A stretch of 16,601 nucleotides of DNA. Origin: a virus. This document shows, piece after piece, positions 1,939 to 14,013 of the stretch (position 1 is the first letter of the stretch; every line of letters starts with the position of its first letter). Location: the UHGV virus genome UHGV-0088365; one strand, 5' to 3'. Below the pieces are notes generated by a model, which saw only the letters and a list, made by a program, of their open reading frames with translations, made no database searches and was not told the DNA's origin. Both the position numbers and the translations under genes were made by a program.

Positions 1939-2297
1939 GCTGATTCCCTTTGATCTTCCTGGATAATGTTGTTGCAATCTTTCACGCACTCGTTGCATAT
2001 GAAAGCGTTGTCCCCGGCAATTAACTTTTTAACGGTGTGCTGGGATTTGTTGCAGAAGCTGCAATAAAGCGTTGGACTGGCTGATACGGATGGTGCGCCA
2101 GATGTCAGCCGCGCGATGTCGTTCTTGCGACGCAATATCACACGGCTGCACTCAACCAGCATCTCCGGGGATATCTCCTCCTCCGTAGAGAGCGTCTCTA
2201 ATCGTTCGAGTATGTGGAAGGCTTTTTCCTGGGTAATCCTGAGTAATTCAGCGTTACGCTCTGCCAGTTGTGCGGGCGTTAAACCTTCAGACTTCAT
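1935..2297 (-). CDS. Hypothetical protein with C-terminal ClpX-type C4 zinc-ribbon domain, 120 aa
   Basis: ATG at 2297 preceded by AAGGAGAG. C-terminus [38 protein letters not shown] closely matches the ClpX N-terminal zinc-binding domain as I recall it ([39 protein letters not shown]). Confidence 0.75.
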
Positions 2298-2571
2298 ACA
2301 CTCTCCTTTCGAAATAAACGTACTGATTAATCATGCCCAGGGGCATTTCGAGTTTTTCCGCGATCTCACGGCGGGGAACACCACACTGATGAAGCTGCCG
2401 TGCCAGTTCTATATCGCTCTGCCGGTATTTGGCTGACTGGTGAAAGTCTCCTTTCAGAATCATGCTGATCCGCAGTTGCCGCGCTTTAGTCCTGACAGCA
2501 CCACCGGTACGCCCGATCAGTCTCCCAATACCCTCGACTGTCATAGTCCCGGCGCACTGGCGGAGTATCAT
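2287..2571 (-). CDS. Small DNA-binding protein with two predicted HTH-like segments (first resembles a GcrA-type N-terminal HTH), about 94 aa
   Basis: ORF-track ORF 2287..2604 trimmed to the ATG at 2571, which has a GGGGAAGGG Shine-Dalgarno-like run upstream (a GTG at 2604 is the alternative). Segments [28 protein letters not shown] and [34 protein letters not shown] look like HTH units. Confidence 0.5.
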
Positions 2572-2600
2572 AATTTCTGCCCTTCCCCATCCCCGCCAGC

Positions 2601-3212
2601 TCACGCAGAACTCCTTCTAACCAAAAGAACGCCATCTTCAGAAACAACGTTGCAGGACTTCAGGTAATTCATTGCCTCTTTCGGTAATGGATTCTTTGGA
2701 TCGGCGTTTGCCAGGGATTTCGATAACCTCATGATAAATTTGATCATTACCTTCTGGCGAAGCTTGTGCTCATGAGATAAAGAAAGGTAATAGGAAATGG
2801 TATGGGCTAAACGCTCACGAAGCTGTTCTGTGCCGTGATATACAGCAGCGATATCACGCAGTGCATTGACCAGTTCCCGGTAAATATGCGGAGCAACCTG
2901 GCATTCAATGTTGGTTGGTGACTCATAAATTACATTCAGCCCCAGCTTTTGAGCCAGCTCGTGCTCTGCACGAGCGCCAACTGATTCCTCCCACCCCTTG
3001 AGCAAATAGACCGCATTAGCCGAACGCACCATTGCAAGGCAAATATCTATGTATTCGCTCTCGCAGAGGCCAGCAGGTAACAGCGCCGGATTCAGAACAA
3101 TATGCCCTACCTCCATCAGCTCTTTTGCTTTCGAAAAAAACGCTGTGCGGTTGTAGTCGGGATAACCAGTCATCGGCCCCGCGATGTAAATTTTCATAAT
3201 GCGTTTTGACAT
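2601..3212 (-). CDS. DUF4406-like (nucleoside 2-deoxyribosyltransferase-like fold) protein with an unrecognised C-terminal extension, about 203 aa
   Basis: ATG at 3212 (MSKRIMKIYIAGPMTGYPDYNRTAFF...VGHIVLNPALLP...) preceded by GGGGAAA; TGATG overlap with the upstream small ORF. The IYIAGPMTG...N...NP pattern is typical of the DUF4406 / deoxyribosyltransferase-like family. The track ORF 2601..3239 uses an upstream TTG. Confidence 0.65.
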   Translation of the reverse strand: MSKRIMKIYIAGPMTGYPDYNRTAFFSKAKELMEVGHIVLNPALLPAGLCESEYIDICLAMVRSANAVYLLKGWEESVGARAEHELAQKLGLNVIYESPTNIECQVAPHIYRELVNALRDIAAVYHGTEQLRERLAHTISYYLSLSHEHKLRQKVMIKFIMRLSKSLANADPKNPLPKEAMNYLKSCNVVSEDGVLLVRRSSA

Positions 3213-3367
3213 CAAAGTTTCCCCAGGAACGTTACGCAAAAGTTGATGAGAGCAAAGAGTTCAATGCCCAGCTCAAACAACGCCAGGACAGTGAAAAACA
3301 GGACATATAGCAACCCAATTTCTGAACCGGATTGCTGGTGGATTGCACTAATTGCGACAAGCATCAT
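3212..3367 (-). CDS. Small hydrophobic membrane peptide, about 51 aa, first gene of the leftward operon
   Basis: Not in the ORF track (too short). ATGATG at 3367..3362 preceded by AGGAGG; translation MMLVAISAIHQQSGSEIGLLYVLFFTVLALFELGIELFALINFCVTFLGKL; stop TGA overlaps the ATG of the DUF4406-like gene. Confidence 0.45.
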   Translation of the reverse strand: MMLVAISAIHQQSGSEIGLLYVLFFTVLALFELGIELFALINFCVTFLGKL

Positions 3368-3408
3368 GACCTCCTGATATAGCGTCTGAAAAAAGTATCT
3401 TCATTTTG

Positions 3409-3438
3409 TGTTAGAAAATCAATTTTGATTTTCTAACA
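3409..3438. promoter_or_regulatory. Perfect 30-bp palindrome TGTTAGAAAATCAATTTTGATTTTCTAACA in the divergent intergenic region; putative operator
   Basis: Read directly: the two 14-nt arms TGTTAGAAAATCAA and TTGATTTTCTAACA are exact reverse complements with a 2-nt centre (TT). It lies between the leftward operon start (3367) and the Ref-like gene start (3484). Related half-sites occur at 4060-4069 and in the 13973-14013 inverted repeat. Confidence 0.6.
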
Positions 3439-3483
3439 TGTTTGATCAACCATAGCGGCTATGTAGACAAACCGGGTATTTCT

Positions 3484-4059
3484 ATGAAGCAAAGCTATTG
3501 GGAGAAACAGACACAAAAAGCCCTGCAAAAACTGGCTGATCCGAAATGGCGAGAGGAACAAAGGGCAAAGCGTCTTCAGCAAGCTCAACGCCAGCAGCAG
3601 CGTGCGCGAGAAAAAGCCGCATCGCCTGAATATCGGCAAAAGAAAATTGAAAAAGCGAAGCAATATGAACAGCGAAGAAAAGAGAAGGCCGCTTCTGCTC
3701 CTGTCAAAAAAACTCGCGCGTCACGCGGCCTGAAAGGCAGAACACTCACAGCAGATGAGCGCCGGATACAAACTGCCATCGGTGCTCTCCCCTGCATTGC
3801 CTGCCATATGCACGGACAGCATAGCCCTGTGGTATCCCTGCACCACATCTTCGGAAGAACAGCAGAGAACGCGCATAAATACGTCCTCCCTTTGTGTAAA
3901 TGGCACCATCAACACGCAGCGCCAGCAGAGATCCGCGAGCAATACCCCTGGTTGGTTCCTGTTCATGCTGATGGAAAAATAGGCGGTAAAGCAGATTTCA
4001 GGCGGCACAATGCTGATGAAATGACGTTGTATCAGATGGCGATTGAATTGATGAATTAG
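3484..4059 (+). CDS. Ref-like recombination-enhancement HNH-family nuclease (basic disordered N-terminus plus Cys/His-rich C-terminal core), 191 aa
   Basis: ATG at 3484 (MKQSYWEKQ...). The N-terminal half is very K/R/Q-rich; the C-terminal half has CIACHMHGQ...LHHIFGRT...CKWHHQ, consistent with an HNH-type metal-binding nuclease core as described for phage P1 Ref. The track ORF starts further upstream at 3442. Confidence 0.65.
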   Translation: MKQSYWEKQTQKALQKLADPKWREEQRAKRLQQAQRQQQRAREKAASPEYRQKKIEKAKQYEQRRKEKAASAPVKKTRASRGLKGRTLTADERRIQTAIGALPCIACHMHGQHSPVVSLHHIFGRTAENAHKYVLPLCKWHHQHAAPAEIREQYPWLVPVHADGKIGGKADFRRHNADEMTLYQMAIELMN

Positions 4060-4075
4060 TTTTCTAACATTTTAA
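4056..4075. promoter_or_regulatory. Single copy of the TTTTCTAACA half-site immediately after the Ref-like stop codon
   Basis: TTTTCTAACA at 4060-4069 is identical to the right arm of the 3409-3438 palindrome; no convincing partner arm is seen upstream. Confidence 0.35.
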
Positions 4076-4390
4076 GTTGAATTATAAATTTCTCCGATGT
4101 ACATTCACTACCGATTGGCACACCGGTCAACTTTTTGAGACAAACTGTATAGTTTTTCGTATTATTGCCGCCGCCATACCTATGGCGGTGCAATATAGGT
4201 GGCTGAAAAGCCCCCGTTGACTCACGGTGTTCCAGCCTTTATTGCGCCGCCGCCAGACCGTGGAACAGTCGATGGCGGCTCCGAAAGCAAGGAGTCACTA
4301 CACTATGAACAGCTACTGTCTTTTCCCATCACTCGTTATCCGCCACTCACGCGATAATCTGCATTCTTTACTCGCGCTGGGGGTGTCAAA

Positions 4391-4558
4391 ATGACCGTTC
4401 GCTACCTCAACTTTCAAATCCAGAACATCACTGGCGGTTGCTATGACTGGTTTGTCACTCTCGGAAAAGAAGTGATCACCGGGAAGCTGGATGAAGTGAA
4501 AGCTAAAGCAATGGCCTACGCCTGCAAGCAAGCCCGGAAGAAATCCGCCAAAGCATAA
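4391..4558 (+). CDS. Hypothetical small basic protein, 55 aa, possibly coupled to a 29-aa leader ORF (4305-4394)
   Basis: ATG at 4391 with GGGGGTG upstream; translation MTVRYLNFQIQNITGGCYDWFVTLGKEVITGKLDEVKAKAMAYACKQARKKSAKA. A 29-aa ORF at 4305-4394 (AAGGAG upstream) ends in an ATGA overlap with this start. Both are below the ORF-track size cutoff; the antisense track ORF 4313..4531 looks less plausible. Confidence 0.3.
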   Translation: MTVRYLNFQIQNITGGCYDWFVTLGKEVITGKLDEVKAKAMAYACKQARKKSAKA

Positions 4559-4762
4559 AATACTGACTTTTGCGCCCTGGCCTTATCGTGGGGTATATTT
4601 CTACGGCACCTTAGAAAAACGGGTGCCGGGATTGGAACCTCACGCGGTAGCTCCTTAACTTAGTCAAAGGAGGCTGCCAATATCGCTACTATCCCCACCC
4701 CAACTCATTCTGAATTTATCTGGCGTTTCTATTCCTGCCAAAAACACCTGTATATCTGCGTC

Positions 4763-5140
4763 ATGGCTGCAACCGAAGCAGAAGCTCGTTCATACCTTCC
4801 TGAAGAACCCTGCATTTTTGCCGCACGCTTCACTCTTGATGCGATGGAGATCCTAAATTACTGGAATCTTCTTGTTTGGTGCTTTTCCAGCTTTGTTCAG
4901 GAAAGACTTTATAACTTTTATTGGGTATTTGTAGTGATGCTGATACTGGCATTCCTCACAGCCGGAATTGGCCCGTGGATTGCCTCATTTATCTGGGCGT
5001 TCATGTATAATAAATATTTCACCGTAAATAAGATAAAACAAGGCTTCATTTTTGCTGGTTCTCACACAGAAAATGAGTTGGCTGCTAGCAAGCTAGGATT
5101 GTCATTAAATCAAAACAACTGCAAAACTATTACCGAGTAA
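4763..5140 (+). CDS. Putative small inner-membrane protein (two predicted TM helices); start uncertain (4763 or 4844)
   Basis: ORF-track ORF; hydrophobic segments LLVWCFSSFV and YWVFVVMLILAFLTAGIGPWIASFIWAFM. The body is AT-rich relative to flanks. No clear Shine-Dalgarno at either candidate ATG. Confidence 0.45.
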   Translation: MAATEAEARSYLPEEPCIFAARFTLDAMEILNYWNLLVWCFSSFVQERLYNFYWVFVVMLILAFLTAGIGPWIASFIWAFMYNKYFTVNKIKQGFIFAGSHTENELAASKLGLSLNQNNCKTITE

Positions 5141-5147
5141 AGCCAAA

Positions 5148-5171
5148 AAGCAGGCTTAATAGTAAGCCTGC
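5148..5171. terminator. Hairpin GCAGGCTT-aatagt-AAGCCTGC between convergent genes; intrinsic terminator for the minus-strand gene, possibly bidirectional
   Basis: Perfect 8-bp stem with 6-nt loop. On the minus strand it is followed by TTTTTGGC; on the plus strand it is preceded by AAAAA. Confidence 0.55.
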
Positions 5172-5179
5172 TATGTCAA

Positions 5180-6013
5180 TCACGAATCTCTCTGACAATT
5201 CAGAAACATAAACGCCCGCTTGTCTGTTAAATCCGTAACATAATACTCTCTCATGCCTGTAGGTTTTATTCTACGAGCATATACAAACTTATGAACTGGT
5301 TGTTTTTCCCCATAACTTACATCAGTCCTAAATTCATCAACCACGCTACCATCTTTTTCAGTTTCCTTTCTCACTAGCTGATTTTCTAATACAGGCTTTG
5401 ATTCGTCCATGCCACTAAAAGCATCCTGACCTGTGCTGTTGCCTCGGTTTCCGCGTGGCAAATCCCATGAAAAATAAGTGCCATAGTCAGTAATCACACG
5501 ATCCCATGTTCCGGAATCCCCCATATAGTTAGAACGCTCCCCCTTGTAAGTTACAGCCACCTTACAGGCATACGTTTCACCATTATTTTTTTTATCATGT
5601 CCAGCCATGCTTGCAGGAGTTGCAGGGGAATTATGAATAGATGCGCTTACATCATCCTGCGTTAATTCCTCAACTGGAGCAAATTCATATATGGGTGTGC
5701 CGAGGCTATTTAAATATAACTTATATCTAACCCTAAGCGCACTTCCATCAGAAAATTCATACGTTCCCAGACATTGGAGCTTATTTTTTTCTCTTATCTC
5801 ATTGATCTGATTATAAGCATCAATTACAGAGATTGCTTCCTGATCGTCCTTCAGCAGTTCATTATAATCATCGATTAACATCTGTCTGGTTTTAGGGGCA
5901 TTACAGTCAATTTTGCTAAAATCATAAGCAAAGGCAAATGTGGGAACAGAGAGAGCAACAACAGTAGCAAGTATTGTTGAGGAACATCTTTTTCCATTTT
6001 TTATAAAAAACAT
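5180..6013 (-). CDS. Secreted or periplasmic protein of unknown function with Sec signal peptide, about 277 aa
   Basis: ORF-track ORF 5180..6091 trimmed to the ATG at 6013 (GGAG 8 nt upstream), giving MFFIKNGKRCSSTILATVVALSVPTFAFA-YDF: basic n-region, hydrophobic core and AFA cleavage-type motif. Mature part is rich in Gly, Tyr and Trp. AT-rich. No family recognised. Confidence 0.7.
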   Translation of the reverse strand: MFFIKNGKRCSSTILATVVALSVPTFAFAYDFSKIDCNAPKTRQMLIDDYNELLKDDQEAISVIDAYNQINEIREKNKLQCLGTYEFSDGSALRVRYKLYLNSLGTPIYEFAPVEELTQDDVSASIHNSPATPASMAGHDKKNNGETYACKVAVTYKGERSNYMGDSGTWDRVITDYGTYFSWDLPRGNRGNSTGQDAFSGMDESKPVLENQLVRKETEKDGSVVDEFRTDVSYGEKQPVHKFVYARRIKPTGMREYYVTDLTDKRAFMFLNCQRDS

Positions 6014-6305
6014 TTCATTAACTCCATACTTTACCATCTTAGCCGCGAGCGCGGTCCCTAAAACCCTTAACTTCACTACACCGTCCTTCATGTAAACAAA
6101 ATGAGGTTTTATGTTATAAAAACAATCAACTTCATCAACATGATTTAGGCCAAGTTTCGGTCAAATAATAAAATCCTCAAAAAGTGGTTGACACTATTCT
6201 GGAAATCACAAACTGCACATAATCCATCGCGCTAACGGCTCCCGTTGAAGGTTCTTTTGACGATTAACTTTCAGCCGAAGCGCGGTAGGGAGTCATAACG
6301 CCAAA

Positions 6306-6333
6306 GCAGGCCGCCATGTGCGGCCTTTTTTTG
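6306..6333 (+). terminator. Intrinsic terminator or attenuator hairpin (GGCCGC-catgt-GCGGCC followed by TTTTTTT) 27 nt upstream of the next start codon
   Basis: Read directly: GC-rich 6-bp stem (7 with the flanking A-T pair), 5-nt loop, 7-T run at 6326-6332. It lies between a TTGACA hexamer at 6188 and the GGAGG/ATG of the 217-aa gene at 6360. Confidence 0.6.
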
Positions 6334-6359
6334 TATCCGTCATCCGTGGAGGAAGGACA

Positions 6360-7013
6360 ATGGAAAAGATCGCAATATTCAGCCTGACCACCAGCAAGCC
6401 TCAAATGCTCACTGCAATACTGAAAGACGGTGCTCTCATTATTAACGAAGTAAAACCCCTTCCCGCGTCAGCATTGGAGCAAAAGCAAAAAATTCCTCCA
6501 GCTATAGCAGCCCTGCGGAAAAGCAAATTTAAGGTACTGGTAGACGAAATTACGCCAACGATCTCCGCTGGCACCGGAGCAAGCCAGGTGACTCTCAAGA
6601 CCCGTCATGCCGATGGCAGAGCAGCAATCATCGTCGGGATGGAAAGATACAGAGAGTTAAAACTCCAGAAGCTATTATCCCTGCCGCAAAATAACAAAGG
6701 TGCTTTCGAAATCCCTGACTCCATCGTTGACACCGAATACAACGGTAACGGAGAAGAAGTCTACCGGGTGAACTGGCAGGATATCAGGCCGGAGCATATT
6801 TTGATGATCCTGTGTTGCTACGCGACCGTATACCACAATGTAGCCAGTGCGGATTACGTAGAGCAGATGACCGGTACAGTCGAGAAAGAGCAAAAAACAG
6901 GCATACTCGCTTCGTTCCTGTCCATTATTGGGCATGAAAAAGTTAAAGCAGGCACCTCCCAGCCAAAGACACTGACTGGGAAAGAAGTTGATGAAGATAC
7001 CGTGATACTTTGA
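6360..7013 (+). CDS. Hypothetical protein, 217 aa
   Basis: ORF-track ORF 6318..7013 trimmed to the ATG at 6360 (MEKIAIFSL...), which has GGAGGAAGG upstream. No family recognised. Confidence 0.7.
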   Translation: MEKIAIFSLTTSKPQMLTAILKDGALIINEVKPLPASALEQKQKIPPAIAALRKSKFKVLVDEITPTISAGTGASQVTLKTRHADGRAAIIVGMERYRELKLQKLLSLPQNNKGAFEIPDSIVDTEYNGNGEEVYRVNWQDIRPEHILMILCCYATVYHNVASADYVEQMTGTVEKEQKTGILASFLSIIGHEKVKAGTSQPKTLTGKEVDEDTVIL

Positions 7014-7148
7014 TCACATTAGTAGCTTTGTTAACTCCCTCAATACCAGGTAGAAGAGTAACAAAAATATTGACGCCAGTATTTGCGTGGTCAATGAAGC
7101 GTTCATAAACAGATCAATTAGCATTAATAATTCGAAGATAACATCCAT
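7014..7148 (-). CDS. Putative small hydrophobic peptide, 44 aa
   Basis: Not in the ORF track. ATG at 7148..7146 with GGAG about 8 nt upstream; translation MDVIFELLMLIDLFMNASLTTQILASIFLLLFYLVLRELTKLLM; its stop abuts the stop of the convergent 217-aa gene. Confidence 0.3.
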   Translation of the reverse strand: MDVIFELLMLIDLFMNASLTTQILASIFLLLFYLVLRELTKLLM

Positions 7149-7341
7149 GTCATTCACTCCGTTTAATTTTTAATCTAATGCCAGCAAATGAAGCTGGCCC
7201 CCGCATAAAGATTAATGAAAGTCACTTGTCACCAGTGAGGGGATTTATGAACCACATCCCCCTGAACTGGTGGCCTGTCTGTTTCTCGCATTTCACACCC
7301 TGCATACAGTTTCCCCCAGGTTATGACTGAGAGGCTTTGTT

Positions 7342-7671
7342 ATGGGCTATAGCAGACTCGACGATAGGTACATTGAAGACGATATTTTTCGTGCGCTGTT
7401 TCACCAGGAAATGATTAAGAGGGTATCGGAGTATCACTCTGATAATTTCCAGTACACGATAAAGATTGATGAAGTATATCGTTCAGACCTTGCAGCCTAC
7501 AGGGCGTATGGCAATGCAGATTTGCGCTGGGTATTCCGGGTGCTGGTGGGCCATGAGTCAGAAATGGAAGAAATGCCCGCAGGGACCACGTTAACTCTTC
7601 CTGATGTGGCATGGCTGAGGAACAAGATCCGTGATTACGCAAGCGCGGAACCGGAGATAGAAAATGCCTGA
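7342..7671 (+). CDS. Hypothetical protein, 109 aa, with weak resemblance to the LysM-like phage tail protein X family
   Basis: ORF-track ORF; its stop overlaps the next start by 8 nt. The segment YGNADLRWVFRVLVGHESEMEEMPAGTTLTLPDV loosely resembles the P2 gpX pattern (...YG...V..VL..N.G......LP.GT.v.LPDV) as I recall it; weak. Confidence 0.6.
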   Translation: MGYSRLDDRYIEDDIFRALFHQEMIKRVSEYHSDNFQYTIKIDEVYRSDLAAYRAYGNADLRWVFRVLVGHESEMEEMPAGTTLTLPDVAWLRNKIRDYASAEPEIENA

Positions 7672-8857
7672 TTTCCTGAAAAACCAGGATGGGCGCTATA
7701 TCACTGACGGCCTGTCCTCTAAGGACTTCACGCGTTTATTCGACCTTATCAGGAAAGAACAAACCCGTAAGCGCCGACAAGCTCACCGGACGCTGACGCC
7801 AGGTAGACTGAGGAACAAATCCGCCGAAGATATTCTCAAGTTAGGGAAGAAAAAAGGCGGCACGTTCTTCACGCGAGACGACCTGAAAGGTTTCGAAAAG
7901 CTACGGAGTAAAACGCGCGAAAAATATGACAGCAAGACGGCTGGCATCACATACGCCCAGCTGGTGGCATCCAGCCAGGCAATCGATATTAAGCGTGCAA
8001 ATAACGCCGTGGATGACGGATCTGGTATCAAAAGAGCTACACCCGTATCTCTTCGCCACAATGTGATTAATATCCGCGTAGAAGCATCGGATATATCCGT
8101 CCACCAGCACCATATCGTCCGGATACGCTTTGAAGAATGGGATCAGATGGTTGATGACATCGCAGAAGACGATAAATCAGCTCTCAAAATCACTAAATCA
8201 CTGTGCGCCGGGCGAGTGTCTTTCGATTGTGACTGTGGTCGTCATCAATACTGGTATCGTTACATCGCCACTGCGGGTAACTTTGCCCTGGCACCGCCAA
8301 AAGAATACGCCTATCCAAAAGTTCGCAACCCGAAGCTGCAAGGCGTCGCCTGTAAACACGTGATCCACTCAATGACGCGGTTACAGTCCGCCAGTTGGCA
8401 AATGAGTATTGCTCGTGCGCTACAAAAGGCTGCAACGCAAATTGCATTTGGTGACGATCGCCGCCGTACAACCAAACACTTCTCAAAAGAAGACGAGAAG
8501 GAGTTTAATCGCAATCGTAGCAGTAAAACGAACGTTGAAGCCGCCAAACGCGAATGGAGGCTCTATCAGAAGCGCCAGGCAGCTTTAAGTACAAAACTGG
8601 CAAAGGACAACGGCAAGATCGACAAACTACGTGACCAATTGACCAAGGCCAGAAAGTTGTCAGATGCACAGAAAAAACGGGCGGCAGCAAAAGAAGCGGC
8701 CTTGCAACGTGAGAAACAGAAAAACAAGGAGCTTCAGCAACGCCTTGCCGATCAGTTCGCACTGAAGAAGCAGGCGTTCATTGATGCGCTTGTCATGGCT
8801 GGAACACCACCAGCACAAGCTGAAAAAATGTTCATGGAGTATGTAAAAAAAGCATAA
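7664..8857 (+). CDS. Basic protein with SWIM-type zinc finger (CxC...CxH) and long C-terminal K/R/Q/A-rich coiled coil, 397 aa
   Basis: ORF-track ORF. FDCDCGRHQYWY...(about 40 aa)...GVACKHVIHS fits the SWIM CxCxnCxH signature; residues about 280-397 are predicted coiled coil (e.g. KRAAAKEAALQREKQKNKELQQRLADQFALKK). Confidence 0.75.
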   Translation: MPDFLKNQDGRYITDGLSSKDFTRLFDLIRKEQTRKRRQAHRTLTPGRLRNKSAEDILKLGKKKGGTFFTRDDLKGFEKLRSKTREKYDSKTAGITYAQLVASSQAIDIKRANNAVDDGSGIKRATPVSLRHNVINIRVEASDISVHQHHIVRIRFEEWDQMVDDIAEDDKSALKITKSLCAGRVSFDCDCGRHQYWYRYIATAGNFALAPPKEYAYPKVRNPKLQGVACKHVIHSMTRLQSASWQMSIARALQKAATQIAFGDDRRRTTKHFSKEDEKEFNRNRSSKTNVEAAKREWRLYQKRQAALSTKLAKDNGKIDKLRDQLTKARKLSDAQKKRAAAKEAALQREKQKNKELQQRLADQFALKKQAFIDALVMAGTPPAQAEKMFMEYVKKA

Positions 8858-8866
8858 ACCACACAT

Positions 8867-8900
8867 AGCCTAGTAGTTTATGCTGGGCTTTCATTTTTTT
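8867..8900 (+). terminator. Intrinsic terminator after the SWIM-protein gene
   Basis: Stem AGCCTAG / CTGGGCT (7 bp with one G-U pair), 9-nt loop, followed by TTCATTTTTTT. The stop of the convergent minus-strand gene (8891) lies inside the T-run. Confidence 0.5.
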
Positions 8901-9619
8901 GAAAGATCAATTCCAGTATTATCAAACAAACTGGAAATATCAGACACCAATTTATTAAAATGCTTGTCATCATTATAGAATGATGTGCTTTTTATAGCGA
9001 CTATAAAATCACATAAATCTTGCGGAGATTCAATGCTAACCCCCTTATTTTTATATAGTTCAATAATACTGCCAACATCAGTATGCAATAGTTTTATCGC
9101 GCCACAAATTTCTCGCTGTTTCGTAACCAAGTCATTAAGTTTATTTTCATTTTCATCTAAGATTTGTTTTGAATATTTAGCGTCATTGGTTGCTTGATTT
9201 AACTTTGTTTTCTTTCTTTGCAATTCTATTCTTTTATCATAATCAGCAACTTCATCTAAATATCTTATTTCAGTGTATAATTTACTTGTTAGCTTAGATA
9301 TCTTCAGTGTGAGAACAGGAGCTAACACAGATGCAAATACTCCATAAATAAATGGGATTACAACGTGATAAACCCACGGGGATACAATCCAATTATCAAT
9401 GAACGGGACATTACCACCAACAGAAACAATAGATAATGTATATAGGATGTCGTCCTTTGACTTTAATATAATTAAAATATCCTTCCAGTTAAAAATTAGA
9501 AAAGAAATGACAACATATGCAAAAACCTTGTTAAATATTTTATCTTTTATTATTTCAGAAAATGATTTTAGTTCTGTTTCATTTATAGACGGATTATCTT
9601 TAACTTTTTCTGACATCAT
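8891..9619 (-). CDS. AT-rich membrane protein (two predicted TM helices) with coiled-coil-rich C-terminal domain, 242 aa; candidate abortive-infection or exclusion-type effector
   Basis: ORF-track ORF; ATGATG start at 9619 with AGGA 7 nt upstream. Predicted TM segments FAYVVISFLIFNW and WVYHVVIPFIYGVFASVLAPVLTL; K/E/N-rich helical C-terminus. Markedly AT-rich. No family recognised. Confidence 0.75.
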   Translation of the reverse strand: MMSEKVKDNPSINETELKSFSEIIKDKIFNKVFAYVVISFLIFNWKDILIILKSKDDILYTLSIVSVGGNVPFIDNWIVSPWVYHVVIPFIYGVFASVLAPVLTLKISKLTSKLYTEIRYLDEVADYDKRIELQRKKTKLNQATNDAKYSKQILDENENKLNDLVTKQREICGAIKLLHTDVGSIIELYKNKGVSIESPQDLCDFIVAIKSTSFYNDDKHFNKLVSDISSLFDNTGIDLSKK

Positions 9620-9640
9620 AGCTTATCCTGATTACTTTTA

Positions 9641-9841
9641 TTATGGATAGTTAAAAGATTCAACAGGTGATGGTGGTTGAATTGGGTAATGTTTCTTCTC
9701 GTACTCCTCAATGAGAAGACTCATAACCTCAAAGAAATCACCTTCCGGAGTATTCATTTCCGGTTCGTTATCGAACATCGGTTCGACCGCACGCAGTGCG
9801 GCCTCATAATCTTGTTCTGTACGGATAGGTTTAATGTTCAT
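9641..9841 (-). CDS. Small protein resembling only the N-terminal (non-HTH) domain of YgjM/HigA-type antitoxins, 66 aa
   Basis: ORF-track ORF; MNIKPIRTEQDYEAALRAVEPMFDNEPEMNTPEGDFFEVMSLLIEEYEKKHYPI follows the pattern of the N-terminal domain of E. coli K-12 HigA (...NEEQYTQALELVDHLL.NDPENPLLDLV...ITAWEE...) as I recall it, but there is no HTH domain. No Shine-Dalgarno sequence is evident. Confidence 0.5.
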   Translation of the reverse strand: MNIKPIRTEQDYEAALRAVEPMFDNEPEMNTPEGDFFEVMSLLIEEYEKKHYPIQPPSPVESFNYP

Positions 9842-9854
9842 TAATTACAAAGGA

Positions 9855-9885
9855 AAGCCCACTTGCTAAGTGGGCTTTTTGTATG
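9855..9885. terminator. Hairpin AAAGCCCACTT-gct-AAGTGGGCTTT followed by TTGTATGTGTTTT; terminator, strongest in the plus orientation
   Basis: Perfect 11-bp stem with 3-nt loop between the higA stop (9898) and the 66-aa ORF start (9841). The T-run is on the plus strand; the minus orientation has only TTTCCTTT. Confidence 0.5.
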
Positions 9886-9897
9886 TGTTTTACTATA

Positions 9898-10236
9898 TCA
9901 GGCTGCTTTTTTATTCAGGTTCCGCTGAGAAATAAATTTTTCAGCAGTATTGATACGACTTAACTCTTCCTGAACGCGCATATCATTTTCGACTTCCCAC
10001 AGATCTACTGCGGTCTGAAGATTAATCCAAAAATCTACAGAAGTATCGAATGCTTTTGCCAGGCGATATGCCATATCCATCGTTAGCTTACGATTGTTAT
10101 TAACAAGAGCACTTACGGTGTTACGATGAACATGAAGTATTTCTGCTAACTCGTTGATCTTCAGCTCTAACGGCTCCAGGTATTCGTACAGCAGGATATC
10201 ACCTACGGTCGTCGGTTTTCTGGTTGCCTGTTTCAT
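9898..10236 (-). CDS. higA: HigA-family antitoxin (XRE-type HTH), 112 aa
   Basis: ORF-track ORF; PTTVGDILLYEYLEPLELKINELAEILHVHRNTVSALVNNNRKLTMDMAYRLAKAFDTSVDFWINLQTAVDLW matches the HigA/VapI HTH antitoxin pattern; it lies downstream of a HigB-like toxin gene (toxin-first order typical of higBA). Confidence 0.8.
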   Translation of the reverse strand: MKQATRKPTTVGDILLYEYLEPLELKINELAEILHVHRNTVSALVNNNRKLTMDMAYRLAKAFDTSVDFWINLQTAVDLWEVENDMRVQEELSRINTAEKFISQRNLNKKAA

Positions 10237-10306
10237 TTTTTGCCCTTACTAGCGTGCGTATTAAGTGGACTCTGGTCAGAACCCGGTCCGTAACCGGGTA
10301 TCTGTT

Positions 10307-10609
10307 TTAGTATTTGTGAGGGTCGAGATACAAGTCCTCGGCCTTTCCGTTAACCCACTTAAAAATTAACCTATATTGCTTATTCACCCTTACTGATGAA
10401 TAGCCATTTAGCTTCCCTGACAGTTCCTCATACCGATTACCTGGTGGTGATCTTAAATCCTTACAGGTAGTTGCGGCATTGATAATGTCCAACTTCCGTG
10501 ACAATGTCATATGAATATCAGGAGGTATCTTTCTATGTGGTGTTGAAAATTCAAAAAAATCATCAAGCCACGCATCCCTGAAATCCTTTATGTTAATTTT
10601 TTTGGTCAT
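10307..10609 (-). CDS. higB: HigB-like toxin (plasmid-maintenance killer protein, RelE/ParE superfamily), 100 aa
   Basis: ORF-track ORF; C-terminal half GNRYEELSGKLNGYSSVRVNKQYRLIFKWVNGKAEDLYLDPHKY follows the HigB pattern (...G.R.G.YS.RVN..YRL.F...NG.A..L...DYH) as I recall it; upstream GGAGGA. Confidence 0.8.
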   Translation of the reverse strand: MTKKINIKDFRDAWLDDFFEFSTPHRKIPPDIHMTLSRKLDIINAATTCKDLRSPPGNRYEELSGKLNGYSSVRVNKQYRLIFKWVNGKAEDLYLDPHKY

Positions 10610-10654
10610 TAGTCATTTGATCCTCCGTGATGATTACCGAATGCCATAACTATA

Positions 10655-10682
10655 GCGCACCGTTGCACTGTGCGCAAGTGCA
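10655..10682. promoter_or_regulatory. Nested palindromes (GCGCAC...GTGCGC and TGCACT-N7-AGTGCA) in the divergent promoter region between higB and the rightward operon; putative operator
   Basis: Read directly in GCGCACCGTTGCACTGTGCGCAAGTGCA; toxin-antitoxin promoters are typically autoregulated through palindromic operators. Confidence 0.4.
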
Positions 10683-10771
10683 TTTTATGAATTCCCCCTC
10701 CTTCATCCAAAATCACAATCTCCAGAAAATCTTCCTTTCGATACCTGACAGATCGACCTTTGAGGATGCTT

Positions 10772-11563
10772 ATGGGCCGTTTTGACGAATGGTTTGCTGA
10801 CGATGCAAACCTGGCAAGTAAGGAGTCAGAACATGACAGCACGCAGAGAGAAACGCCAGCGCCGATTGAAGCGAATGCAGGAGGCGCGCCGGAACATGGC
10901 AATACCGGTTCGGATTCATTCAGCATTCTGGAAGAGCAACCCGCCGCCCAAGCTGATAGCCATGATAATTTTGCTGATAGCAACGGTGGCCTTACTCCGG
11001 ATGCTGGCGAATCAGATATAGCCATACTTCCATCTTCCCTGGCTGGCAGAGAACCGACTCCACAGTTAAAAGCACGCTATAACGGGCATAAAGCCTTTAA
11101 CGACCAAATCCGCGCAGACTGGATGCTGATTATTGAATCCAGCCCAGACGCGTTTCAGGCTCTCTTATATCGACCAGATGTTGGCACATATGGGGTAGTC
11201 AGCGACGAAACAGGAGAAGAGTCATTCACTGAACTGGATAACAACCAACGCGAACTGACTTACCAGGAACCTGAAATCGTTTATGTGCTGGATAACCCTG
11301 ACGGGCGTGACTCTTTCCATGCGATTGACGCAGACGGTGAGCAGGATGGCTTAACCGATGATGTTCTGATTCTGCGTATTGCAGCAAATAACGTCCCCGT
11401 CGGCTCAATTCTTGAATGGAATGAAGAGATGGTAAACGGCGTAGCGCGCCGCTGGTGGTACGTGCACCGTATTTTTAGCTACGGCACACAGCATGTTGGT
11501 TCGCTTTACTACTGCATACCTGCCAGGAATTTTGATACGACTCAAAACGGAGTGATCGAATGA
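10772..11563 (+). CDS. Hypothetical protein with acidic, low-complexity N-terminal half, 263 aa
   Basis: ORF-track ORF 10760..11563 trimmed to the ATG at 10772 (GAGGA 5 nt upstream); ATGA overlap with the next gene. No family recognised. Confidence 0.7.
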   Translation: MGRFDEWFADDANLASKESEHDSTQRETPAPIEANAGGAPEHGNTGSDSFSILEEQPAAQADSHDNFADSNGGLTPDAGESDIAILPSSLAGREPTPQLKARYNGHKAFNDQIRADWMLIIESSPDAFQALLYRPDVGTYGVVSDETGEESFTELDNNQRELTYQEPEIVYVLDNPDGRDSFHAIDADGEQDGLTDDVLILRIAANNVPVGSILEWNEEMVNGVARRWWYVHRIFSYGTQHVGSLYYCIPARNFDTTQNGVIE

Positions 11564-13972: not shown

Positions 13973-14013
13973 ATTTGTGTTAGATAATTAACGCATATTT
14001 TCTAACACAAATG
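13973..14013. promoter_or_regulatory. 13-bp perfect inverted repeat CATTTGTGTTAGA-N15-TCTAACACAAATG directly upstream of rdgC; related to the 3409-3438 palindrome
   Basis: Read directly; arms at 13973-13985 and 14001-14013. It shares the core TGTTAGA / TCTAACA with the two sites at 3409-3438 and 4060-4069. No T-run follows, so it does not look like an intrinsic terminator. Confidence 0.55.

Follow-up and report, generated by a model that had tools for sequence, protein, structure and literature searches.

The closest described relatives of the DNA considered here are P1 and D6. D6 is a P1-related plasmid prophage; PMC6799933, which cites Gilcrease & Casjens 2018 on D6-like plasmid prophages, treats higA-higB as its second addiction system. 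The late genes 26-25-7-24-6-5 form one unbroken operon in P1 (NC_005856, annotation of Lobocka et al. 2004) and Cronobacter phage JK004, with 3 nt between genes 25 and 7; P1 transcribes it from late promoter LP26. The P1 gene ref lies directly before mat, at a distance of 79 nt; Omat, an operator of the C1 repressor, overlies the ref stop codon and is followed at once by the late promoter LPmat and mat. Two further P1 loci are relevant, immI (c4, icd, ant1/2) and the sim locus (simA-simB-simC) beside c4; SimC is the protein that confers superimmunity. Virus genome UHGV-0088365, a stretch of 16,601 nt referred to here as the window, is by its sequence part of a D6-like (P1-family) phage-plasmid of E. 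coli. We describe its region between ref and gene 7, most of which (4080-10610) the original prediction, made from the sequence alone, had described as a single compositionally mosaic cargo region inserted between phage operons.

The block is very probably a patchwork, consisting of a decayed immunity operon and two swap-prone slots that flank conserved tail genes; with the exception of one gene, orf73, it would represent ordinary phage mosaicism. Half of the block is core machinery or a broken immunity operon, and the call of a cargo island was over-broad. The gain is that two exchange hotspots are now mapped precisely in the D6-like phage-plasmids, a group common in both E. coli and Salmonella. 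The novelty is modest: morons, toxin–antitoxin (TA) cassettes and accessory hotspots are of known kinds, and to these is added one small uncharacterised protein family, that of orf73.

Over 4000-10700 the window shares 95.7% identity with Escherichia phage D6 (MF356679 / NC_050154) and 97-99% with ~90-kb non-mobilizable plasmids of E. coli and Salmonella, for example pLD93-1-90kb. The gene order from ref to gene 7 matches that of D6 genes orf70-orf87, and higB, higA, 26, 25, mat and genes 7-5 are nearly identical in the two. The window differs from D6 in that it has no canonical C4 RNA, ant, pmgF, intact icd or intact orf80; its orf72 is cut from 119 to 66 residues and its orf73 allele is only about 58-60% identical. 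The exact configuration of deletions in the window has no match in PLSDB or in 5426 complete E. coli genomes. Of these genomes, 226 contain some part of the 1-kb sequence 4400-5400 at the left end of the block, mostly at only 80-95% identity; these matches thus include more distant P1-family elements.

The gene map is based on D6 and RefSeq annotations and on scans with PHROG, Pfam and NCBIfam. Gene content was compared across 45 related loci (D6, plasmids, 38 IMG/VR contigs and metagenome contigs; individual loci carry an L number), and the interval between genes 25 and 7 across the 36 loci that have both flanks. Deletions were located by blastn against pLD93-1 (L002), and the defence models were those of PADLOC-DB v2. 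The phage's own genes and the orientation of the whole region are as follows.

3442-4059, plus strand: ref (D6/RefSeq annotation and profile scans)
6360-7013, plus strand: mat, maturation control, core gene (D6 annotation, phrog_1837)
7342-7671, plus strand: gene 26, baseplate wedge, core late gene (phrog_1269)
7664-8857, plus strand: gene 25, tail protein, core late gene (phrog_1722)
10772 onward, plus strand: genes 7 (ATG at 10772), 24, 6, 5, rdgC and dam (annotation)
Orientation runs in the open reading frame (ORF) map: 4391-5140, plus; 5180-6091, minus; 6360-8857, plus; 8891-10609, minus; 10772 onward, plus

The middle of the block, 6034-8852, is conserved core, made up of the mat leader, mat and the baseplate/tail genes 26 and 25. 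mat was found in all but two of the 45 loci; one exception (L003) is a P1 stretch with mat outside the DNA compared, and in the other (L015) the match covers only 53% of the protein. Genes 26 and 25 are present in all loci, and gp25 is 56-57% identical to P1 gp25. Together with genes 7, 24, 6 and 5, these genes were found wherever the compared stretch covers them and are 94-100% identical among the D6-likes. Genes 26 and 25 follow mat in the window; in P1 their place after mat is taken by res/mod, and they are found in another part of the genome. Because core genes occupy these ~2.8 kb in its middle, the block cannot be a single inserted cargo island. The view that all of 4080-10610 is one horizontally acquired cargo or defence island between two phage operons does draw on the overall GC content of the block (0.428 against 0.48 in the flanks), on its many strand flips and terminators and on its TA module and unknown proteins. 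However, mat, 26 and 25 have a GC content normal for the window (0.477-0.491; mat 0.477), have P1 homologues and recur in every relative; the left end appears to be the phage's own repressor-controlled immI-type operon; and the variable parts fall into two separate slots with independent contents. We consider such an island highly improbable.

Several elements of the original prediction were nevertheless borne out. The composition is not uniform: the two AT-rich blocks have GC contents of 0.392 (4850-6100) and 0.290 (8890-9640), against means of 0.480 (standard deviation 0.010, minimum 0.452) and 0.479 (standard deviation 0.017, minimum 0.433) in windows of the same respective lengths outside the region. 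The orientation changes four times along the block. Terminator-like hairpins number 24, against 6.6 ± 3.1 in shuffled sequence, with strong terminators at gene ends at 5149-5172, 6308-6326, 8867-8889 and 9854-9878. The predicted contents are present as well: a TA module (higB 10307-10609, higA 9898-10236), two proteins with hydrophobic helices (4763-5140 and 8891-9619), one signal-peptide protein (5180-6013) and several proteins without a Pfam family. The contents of both slots differ among the 36-45 related loci. A moron or hotspot pattern holds for two variable accessory slots at places where P1 genes adjoin, not for one region. The defence island was not supported: PADLOC-DB v2 gives no complete system in the region, only a partial PD-Lambda-2_B match, to the first 65 residues of an antitoxin of that kind, and weak helix-turn-helix (HTH) matches for HigA.

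Among single genes, orf73 has a GC content of 0.291 (z = -10.7) and a GC content at third codon positions (GC3) of 0.228, the simB-like gene 0.398 (z = -4.6) and higBA 0.410 (z = -3.9); GC3 of the core genes is 0.44-0.53. Low GC could in principle reflect amino-acid and codon constraints of native membrane and secreted proteins rather than foreign origin. orf73 and the orf80-derived part have a high content of Ile, Leu, Phe, Lys and Asn, and scores of synonymous usage relative to the core genes are only slightly lower (-0.02 against +0.03 to +0.10), as such constraints would predict. Against this, the low-GC genes are the very ones that vary or are absent in relatives, and other cargo of these slots in relatives is likewise of 36-37% GC. 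The GC3 of 0.23 in orf73 argues for foreign composition despite hydrophobic codon bias, and constraint as the whole explanation is hardly credible.

The first of the two slots lies between genes 25 and 7 and holds the following features.

8853-10709, no strand: variable cassette region splitting the late operon (synteny and locus comparison)
8867-8889, plus strand: terminator after gene 25, abutting the orf73 stop (hairpin scan)
8891-9619, minus strand: orf73, a 242-residue membrane/coiled-coil protein of 29% GC, hypervariable cassette (ORF, helices, AlphaFold2 model)
9641-9841, minus strand: 66-residue relic of an orphan HigA-type antitoxin (homology to D6 orf72, 119 residues)
9854-9878, minus strand: bidirectional terminator after higA (11-13 bp stem on both strands)
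9898-10236, minus strand: higA, antitoxin (TIGR02607 antidote_HigA, 102.5 bits, cutoff 47.7; PF01381, 7e-11)
10307-10609, minus strand: higB, toxin (PF05015, E 4.4e-35, 120.5 bits, cutoff 27)
10664-10682, no strand: palindrome TGCACTGTGCGCAAGTGCA in the 100-nt region upstream of higB
10710-10730, plus strand: candidate late-promoter motif, the second of two exact copies, upstream of gene 7 at the right cassette edge (motif recurrence)

The gap between genes 25 and 7, 3 nt in P1 and JK004, is 1.9 kb in the window. Homology common to all D6-likes ends at ~8844-8852 and resumes at 10710. Between these limits the interval ranges from 316 to 2900 nt, with at least eight distinct configurations among the 36 loci, and its sizeable ORFs are all on the minus strand. 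Near gene 7 there is one of three TA pairs: PF05015 HigB with TIGR02607 HigA, as in the window and D6; PF09907 HigB with a 119-residue HigA-type antitoxin, D6 orf72 (L007, L017, L018, L021-23, L030, L031); or a ygjN/ygjM-like pair (L035, L040). Near gene 25, 28 of the 36 loci carry a gene of the orf73 family. orf73 occurs without any TA pair in L037 and L038, and TA pairs occur without orf73 in L017, L018 and L040; the cassettes are thus independent. The shortest interval (L034) retains the 5′ end of a PF09907 toxin gene and is thus a deletion product, not a virgin site. We suggest that 8853-10709 is a recombination hotspot which would break the late operon 26-25|7-24-6-5 by independently exchangeable minus-strand cassettes, gene 7 being re-promoted by the late-promoter-like motif at the cassette edge. 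The region lies between genes that adjoin in P1 (25 and 7 also in JK004), deviates in composition (GC 0.29-0.41 against 0.48; z -3.9 to -10.7) and varies in content. An additional ORF of 150-179 residues (MSQEVEKWRAFEHPDG...), with no Pfam or PADLOC match, is present in the hotspot of two loci, alone in L036 and beside orf73 and higBA in L029.

Morons have reportedly been described in lambdoid phages by Juhala et al. in 2000, and defence hotspots in P2 and P4 are said to have been described by Rousset et al. in 2022. With morons and prophage hotspots in general, the slots share deviant composition, their own terminators, genes on the opposite strand, a position between genes adjacent in related phages and contents that vary between fixed flanks. 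Among the known examples found, none had its site within the baseplate/tail operon of a P1-family phage-plasmid or the orf73 family as its main occupant.

The TA pair of the window is, by sequence criteria, a classical HigBA type II system, with a PF05015 toxin upstream of a TIGR02607 HTH antitoxin; no notable difference from HigBA of Proteus vulgaris Rts1 or GraTA of P. putida was seen. HigB resembles GraT (6F8S) and Proteus HigB (4MCT/4PX8). The order is toxin first, higB (10609-10307) preceding higA (10236-9898) on the minus strand, with a terminator after higA. HigB would act as a ribosome-dependent mRNA endonuclease and HigA as its antidote, and the pair would serve plasmid addiction and possibly abortive infection. 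The palindrome TGCACTGTGCGCAAGTGCA is a plausible HigA operator.

The 66-residue ORF beside higA is 91% identical to the first 55% of D6 orf72 and has lost the HTH half. Full-length orf72 resembles E. coli HigA 5IFG (E 8.7e-8). Every locus with the PF05015-type pair retains orf72, at least as a stump, and lacks the PF09907 toxin; the stump always accompanies an orf73 allele 97-100% identical to that of the window. In the simplest history, the PF09907 HigB would have been replaced by the present higBA, leaving orf72 an orphan, and the HTH half of orf72 would then have been lost in a later swap of the orf73 cassette with a breakpoint inside orf72. The locus would thus be an example of TA cassette replacement that leaves an orphan antitoxin behind.

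These remnants have a bearing on PD-lambda-2, a defence system composed of a HigB-like protein, a HigA-ImmA/IrrE peptidase fusion and a P4-antitoxin-like third gene needed for defence (Vassallo et al. 2022, PMC9519451); its component B, which carries the ImmA/IrrE peptidase domain, is the toxic one (PMC9519451). The PF09907 HigB of the relatives matches PD-Lambda-2_A over its full length (1e-41), and their orf72 matches the first 119 of the 402 positions of PD-Lambda-2_B (4e-43), its HigA-like N-terminal third; the 66-residue ORF of the window matches positions 1-65 of the same model (E 2.5e-16). Moreover, PF09907 HigB, orf72 and orf73 follow one another in this order with short spacers in L007, L021-L023, L030 and L031, and PD-lambda-2 requires a third gene (PMC9519451). 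The three genes could then be one PD-lambda-2-related system, degenerate in the window, with orf73 as the surviving effector. This reading is improbable. The parts separate, orf73 and the TA pairs each occurring alone in the loci named above; orf72 has no ImmA/IrrE peptidase domain, which defines PD-lambda-2B; orf73 has no PADLOC match at E <= 0.01, and so none to the PD-lambda-2 models; and orf73 is intact in the window although the toxin is missing and orf72 is truncated. In the window itself HigB (PF05015) gives no match to PD-Lambda-2_A, the PF09907 HigB that does so occurring only in relatives, and neither the HTH nor the peptidase domain of component B is present. No protein of the region matches the other PD-lambda-2 models at E <= 0.01. 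As judged from these components, the window is not a member of PD-lambda-2. orf73 was likewise rejected as a part of such a system, its supposed partners occurring separately and the defining domains being missing.

The original prediction held the block to be the likeliest place for an undescribed system. What stands of this is a single gene, orf73, the only candidate for something undescribed in the block. Its product has hydrophobic helices at residues 32-52 and 82-108. An AlphaFold2 model built from 30 sequences (predicted local distance difference test score, pLDDT, 83) shows a transmembrane (TM) hairpin, its two arms joined by a short helix; TM2 extends into a helix of ~110 residues, and the C terminus forms a small helical bundle; a 4-sequence alignment had given an unusable model (pLDDT 54). 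The family is small, with only 50 cluster representatives at E <= 1e-3 in a HMMER search of 1.8 billion proteins. orf73 has no Pfam, NCBIfam or PADLOC match, the family members no Pfam match beyond coiled-coil noise, and the family falls in PHROGs 8191, 13369 and 4780, all without an assigned function. Comparison with PDB and BFVD folds, and of the profile with PDB sequences, gave coiled-coil noise or K+-channel pore matches (E > 3) that were not relied on. Members share an N-terminal signature, K-D-x-L-x-N...S....N-W...KSK-x-D-I..T-L, then P...G..A....P..T, beyond which the coiled coil and tail are variable.

Alleles of orf73 are either 33-60% or 97-100% identical to that of the window, against 94-100% for the flanking gp25. 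D6 is the only sequenced phage with the gene, in a 57.5%-identical allele. Distant members, of 334-339 residues, each stand alone on the opposite strand in integrated prophages of Klebsiella and Raoultella, flanked by the DnaB replication module and NinB/Ref-like genes, and homologues in Klebsiella temperate phages are annotated 'hypothetical'. Exclusion or defence genes that are expressed in the lysogen are commonly recognised by opposite-strand placement, foreign composition, dispensability and turnover of alleles. Since orf73 lies on the opposite strand inside lytic operons and shows such composition, dispensability and allelic turnover, an exclusion or defence role suggests itself. The product would be an inner-membrane protein expressed in the lysogen, N-in/C-in, anchored by two TM helices with a long coiled coil in the cytoplasm, and would act in superinfection exclusion or abortive infection. 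We put forward this inner-membrane role tentatively.

The main rival makes orf73 an accessory of the phage cycle, in lysis timing, in tail or baseplate assembly at the membrane or in partition of the plasmid prophage, its divergence reflecting co-evolution with other phage parts. It would explain why orf73 adjoins baseplate/tail genes in 28 of the 36 loci and has no defence-model match, and a long coiled coil is found in many structural and scaffolding proteins. Yet orf73 is on the opposite strand to the late operon, with terminators between; it is missing from 8 of 36 otherwise near-identical elements, from P1 and from JK004; its alleles are exchanged without matching change in the neighbouring structural genes; and in unrelated Klebsiella prophages its distant members, here too encoded on the opposite strand, lie within the early/replication region. 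A role in the phage cycle is thus unlikely. A bolder form of the exclusion proposal is rather doubtful: the orf73 family would be an unrecognised single-gene membrane exclusion or abortive module of enterobacterial prophages, swapped as allelic cassettes at the baseplate-operon hotspot, while orf72 or its 66-residue stump would be an anti-addiction factor letting PF05015-type elements displace their PF09907-HigB siblings. In its simpler form, a lysogen-protecting membrane protein fits the context, composition and allele turnover, and orf73 is a candidate that is cheap to test. Should it block phage infection, it would represent a new small family of prophage-encoded exclusion or defence genes; otherwise the region is ordinary.

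The second slot lies upstream of mat and is occupied in the window by a single gene.

5180-6013, minus strand (ORF open to 6091): secreted SimB-domain protein, AT-rich accessory gene (SimB homology)

In P1 ref and mat are separated by 79 nt, against 2.3 kb in the window. Homology common to all D6-likes, whatever lies upstream, begins at ~6034, the edge of the slot. On this comparison 5180-6033 is a variable slot, which here holds the AT-rich SimB-domain gene. The likely start is M27 at 6013, giving a 277-residue protein with a signal peptide; phrog_13054 covers residues 27-303. Residues 34-142 are 46% identical to the entire P1 SimB (111 residues; E 2e-27). The C-terminal ~160 residues were tried as SimC and rejected, there being no significant similarity (E 0.96), and no other SimC-like ORF was found within the block. 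As in P1, where sim lies beside c4, a SimB-homologous secreted protein is found beside the immI region; the window, however, has this one protein, convergent with the immI-type operon, whereas P1 sim is divergent. Relatives carry in the slot the simB-like gene (18 loci), a different 277-residue secreted protein with a signal peptide (16 loci) or both (3 loci); some also carry a pair of a 361-residue and a dCTP-deaminase-like protein (36-37% GC) or a zeta toxin. On this evidence the simB-like gene is a genuine variable accessory gene, its function at best 'sim-related'.

We note two arrangements of this slot. An AT-rich trio (36-37% GC) of a 101-residue protein, a 357-361-residue protein without a Pfam match and a 205-209-residue dCTP-deaminase-like protein (PF22769) lies between pmgF and mat, at ~2650-4660 nt past the ref stop in L030 (IMGVR_UViG_2778261177_000004), at 12654-14646 in L005 and at 11811-13803 in L006. 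It has no PADLOC match and could be a nucleotide-depletion type of defence or a moron of deoxynucleotide (dNTP) metabolism. In L038 (IMGVR_UViG_3300025735_000294), a more distant D6-like, ref and mat are 8.3 kb apart, with a zeta-toxin gene (PF06414) and several unknown ORFs; this shows the capacity of the slot.

The left end of the block, 4060-5140, is of a different nature.

4059-4069, plus strand: operator-like site GTTTTCTAACA over the ref stop, head of the immI-type operon (motif match)
4178-4257, plus strand: C4-like antisense RNA, sub-threshold (Rfam RF01695, 37.7 bits, E 1.7e-5, full-length model)
4391-4558, plus strand: orf85-like gene, 55 residues (phrog_7786, E 1.8e-43)
4630-4639, no strand: junction of deletion 1, ~180 bp, direct repeat GATTGGAACC (blastn against pLD93-1, junction sequences)
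4682-5140, plus strand: icd'-'orf80 chimera, with a 125-residue ORF at 4763-5140 (phrog/NF matches and sequence comparison)
4858-4869, no strand: junction of deletion 2, 1523 bp, short microhomology (blastn against pLD93-1)
5149-5172, minus strand: intrinsic terminator between the convergent chimera and simB-like gene (10-bp stem and T-run)

This part is probably the phage's own immI-type operon, with operator, C4-family RNAs, icd and antirepressor. In D6 and pLD93-1 the stretch after ref contains an isrK-like RNA (59-61 bits), a C4 RNA (RF01695, 76-77 bits), icd, a Rha-type antirepressor, pmgF and orf80; the relatives thus share with P1 immI the order C4, icd, antirepressor, and the window's version is degenerate. 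Deletion 1 took all of the canonical C4 RNA and cut off the isrK-like RNA at its 3′ side. Deletion 2 took the 3′ end of icd, ant (the Rha-type antirepressor), pmgF and the 5′ end of orf80. The icd start codon is changed from ATG to ATC at 4682, so that no ORF can be called before the internal ATG at 4763. From icd the reading frame passes into orf80 out of phase and is back in the orf80 frame later on; residues 1-40 of the chimera match phrog_1426 and NF033153 (Icd-like) and residues 41-124 match phrog_4915 (D6 orf80). Two deletions at microhomology or direct repeats, loss of the icd start and the frame change would together have inactivated immI and produced the chimeric ORF. The first 'membrane protein' of the original prediction, at 4763-5140, is thus a fusion, and the left end does not belong to the cargo.

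At the gathering score Rfam gives no match in the window, and canonical C4 and isrK are absent; tblastn finds no ant. The window has neither a C4 RNA at gathering score nor an intact icd with antirepressor. The C4-like RNA at 4178-4257, just downstream of a promoter-like site (4137-4165), scores below the gathering score of 45. D6-likes seem to carry two tandem C4-family RNAs in this operon, of which the window retains only the divergent one. The orf85-like gene is found in most D6-like loci, and icd-ant has also been lost in L021, L028, L034, L035 and L044. The 11-nt motif ATTTTCTAACA, with at most one mismatch, occurs six times in the window against 0.41 expected. It forms inverted pairs with 8-nt spacing upstream of ref (3409-3438) and rdgC (13978-14007), and a single copy lies over the ref stop. 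P1 Oref and Omat are at the places corresponding to the sites upstream of ref and over the ref stop, Omat likewise overlying the stop codon. By this analogy the ATTTTCTAACA sites are probably operators bound by a D6-type C1 repressor.

Two signals in the mat leader complete the map.

6203-6223, plus strand: candidate late-promoter motif AAATCACAA-N6-CATAAT upstream of mat (motif recurrence)
6308-6326, plus strand: conserved intrinsic terminator, 33 nt before the mat start (hairpin scan)

The window has just two copies of the 21-nt motif AAATCACAA-N6-NANAAT, at 6203 and 10710, ending in (C/G)A(T/A)AAT. The copy upstream of mat is conserved in relatives and its position is analogous to that of P1 LPmat; the P1 -22 boxes (AAATGACTA / AAGTGACTT), with N4 spacing to the -10 element, differ from it. 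The motif is a candidate D6-type late promoter, the 10710 copy of which would re-drive genes 7-24-6-5. The hairpin at 6308-6326 lies within the conserved leader 6034-6359, downstream of this candidate promoter, and is retained in divergent relatives, JK004 among them, with changes in stem and loop; covariation in the leader is weak, with 6 sequences and too few divergent ones among them. It may serve to attenuate transcription or mark where a ~100-nt RNA ends.

Several observations weigh against the patchwork and the role proposed for orf73. Among the D6-likes no naive empty 25|7 site was found; insertion there is deduced from the synteny of P1 and JK004, and loss in the P1 lineage is possible in principle. 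The operator and late-promoter motifs are recurring sequences of putative function. The P1 late-promoter consensus has no plus-strand match upstream of genes 26 and 7, its single match being on the minus strand with 2 mismatches (7209-7227). Promoter-like matches in a sigma-70 scan are at chance level (15 against 14.8 expected), so that the independent transcription units originally predicted stand as far as terminators, strand flips and conserved motifs go and find no echo in promoter enrichment. Part of the low GC in a membrane protein would follow from its hydrophobic codons. orf73 shows no similarity to characterised exclusion or defence proteins in PADLOC, PDB or BFVD, and the case for its role is drawn solely from context, topology, composition and allele turnover.

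Two minor observations concern sequence beside these features. A very hydrophobic 47-residue ORF (D6 orf77; 7014-7157, minus strand) abuts the mat stop. Upstream of it on the minus strand is AAGTGACTT-TCAT-TAATCT (7209-7227), which resembles a late promoter of the P1 LPmat type, and the ORF may encode a small membrane peptide expressed late. The leftward early genes of the window at 1274-2248 (ea22-like, ClpX zinc-finger protein) match D6 and pLD93-1 only in patches, with blastn gaps at 1274-1954 and lowered identity across 2248-4634; mosaicism is thus not limited to the block between ref and gene 7.

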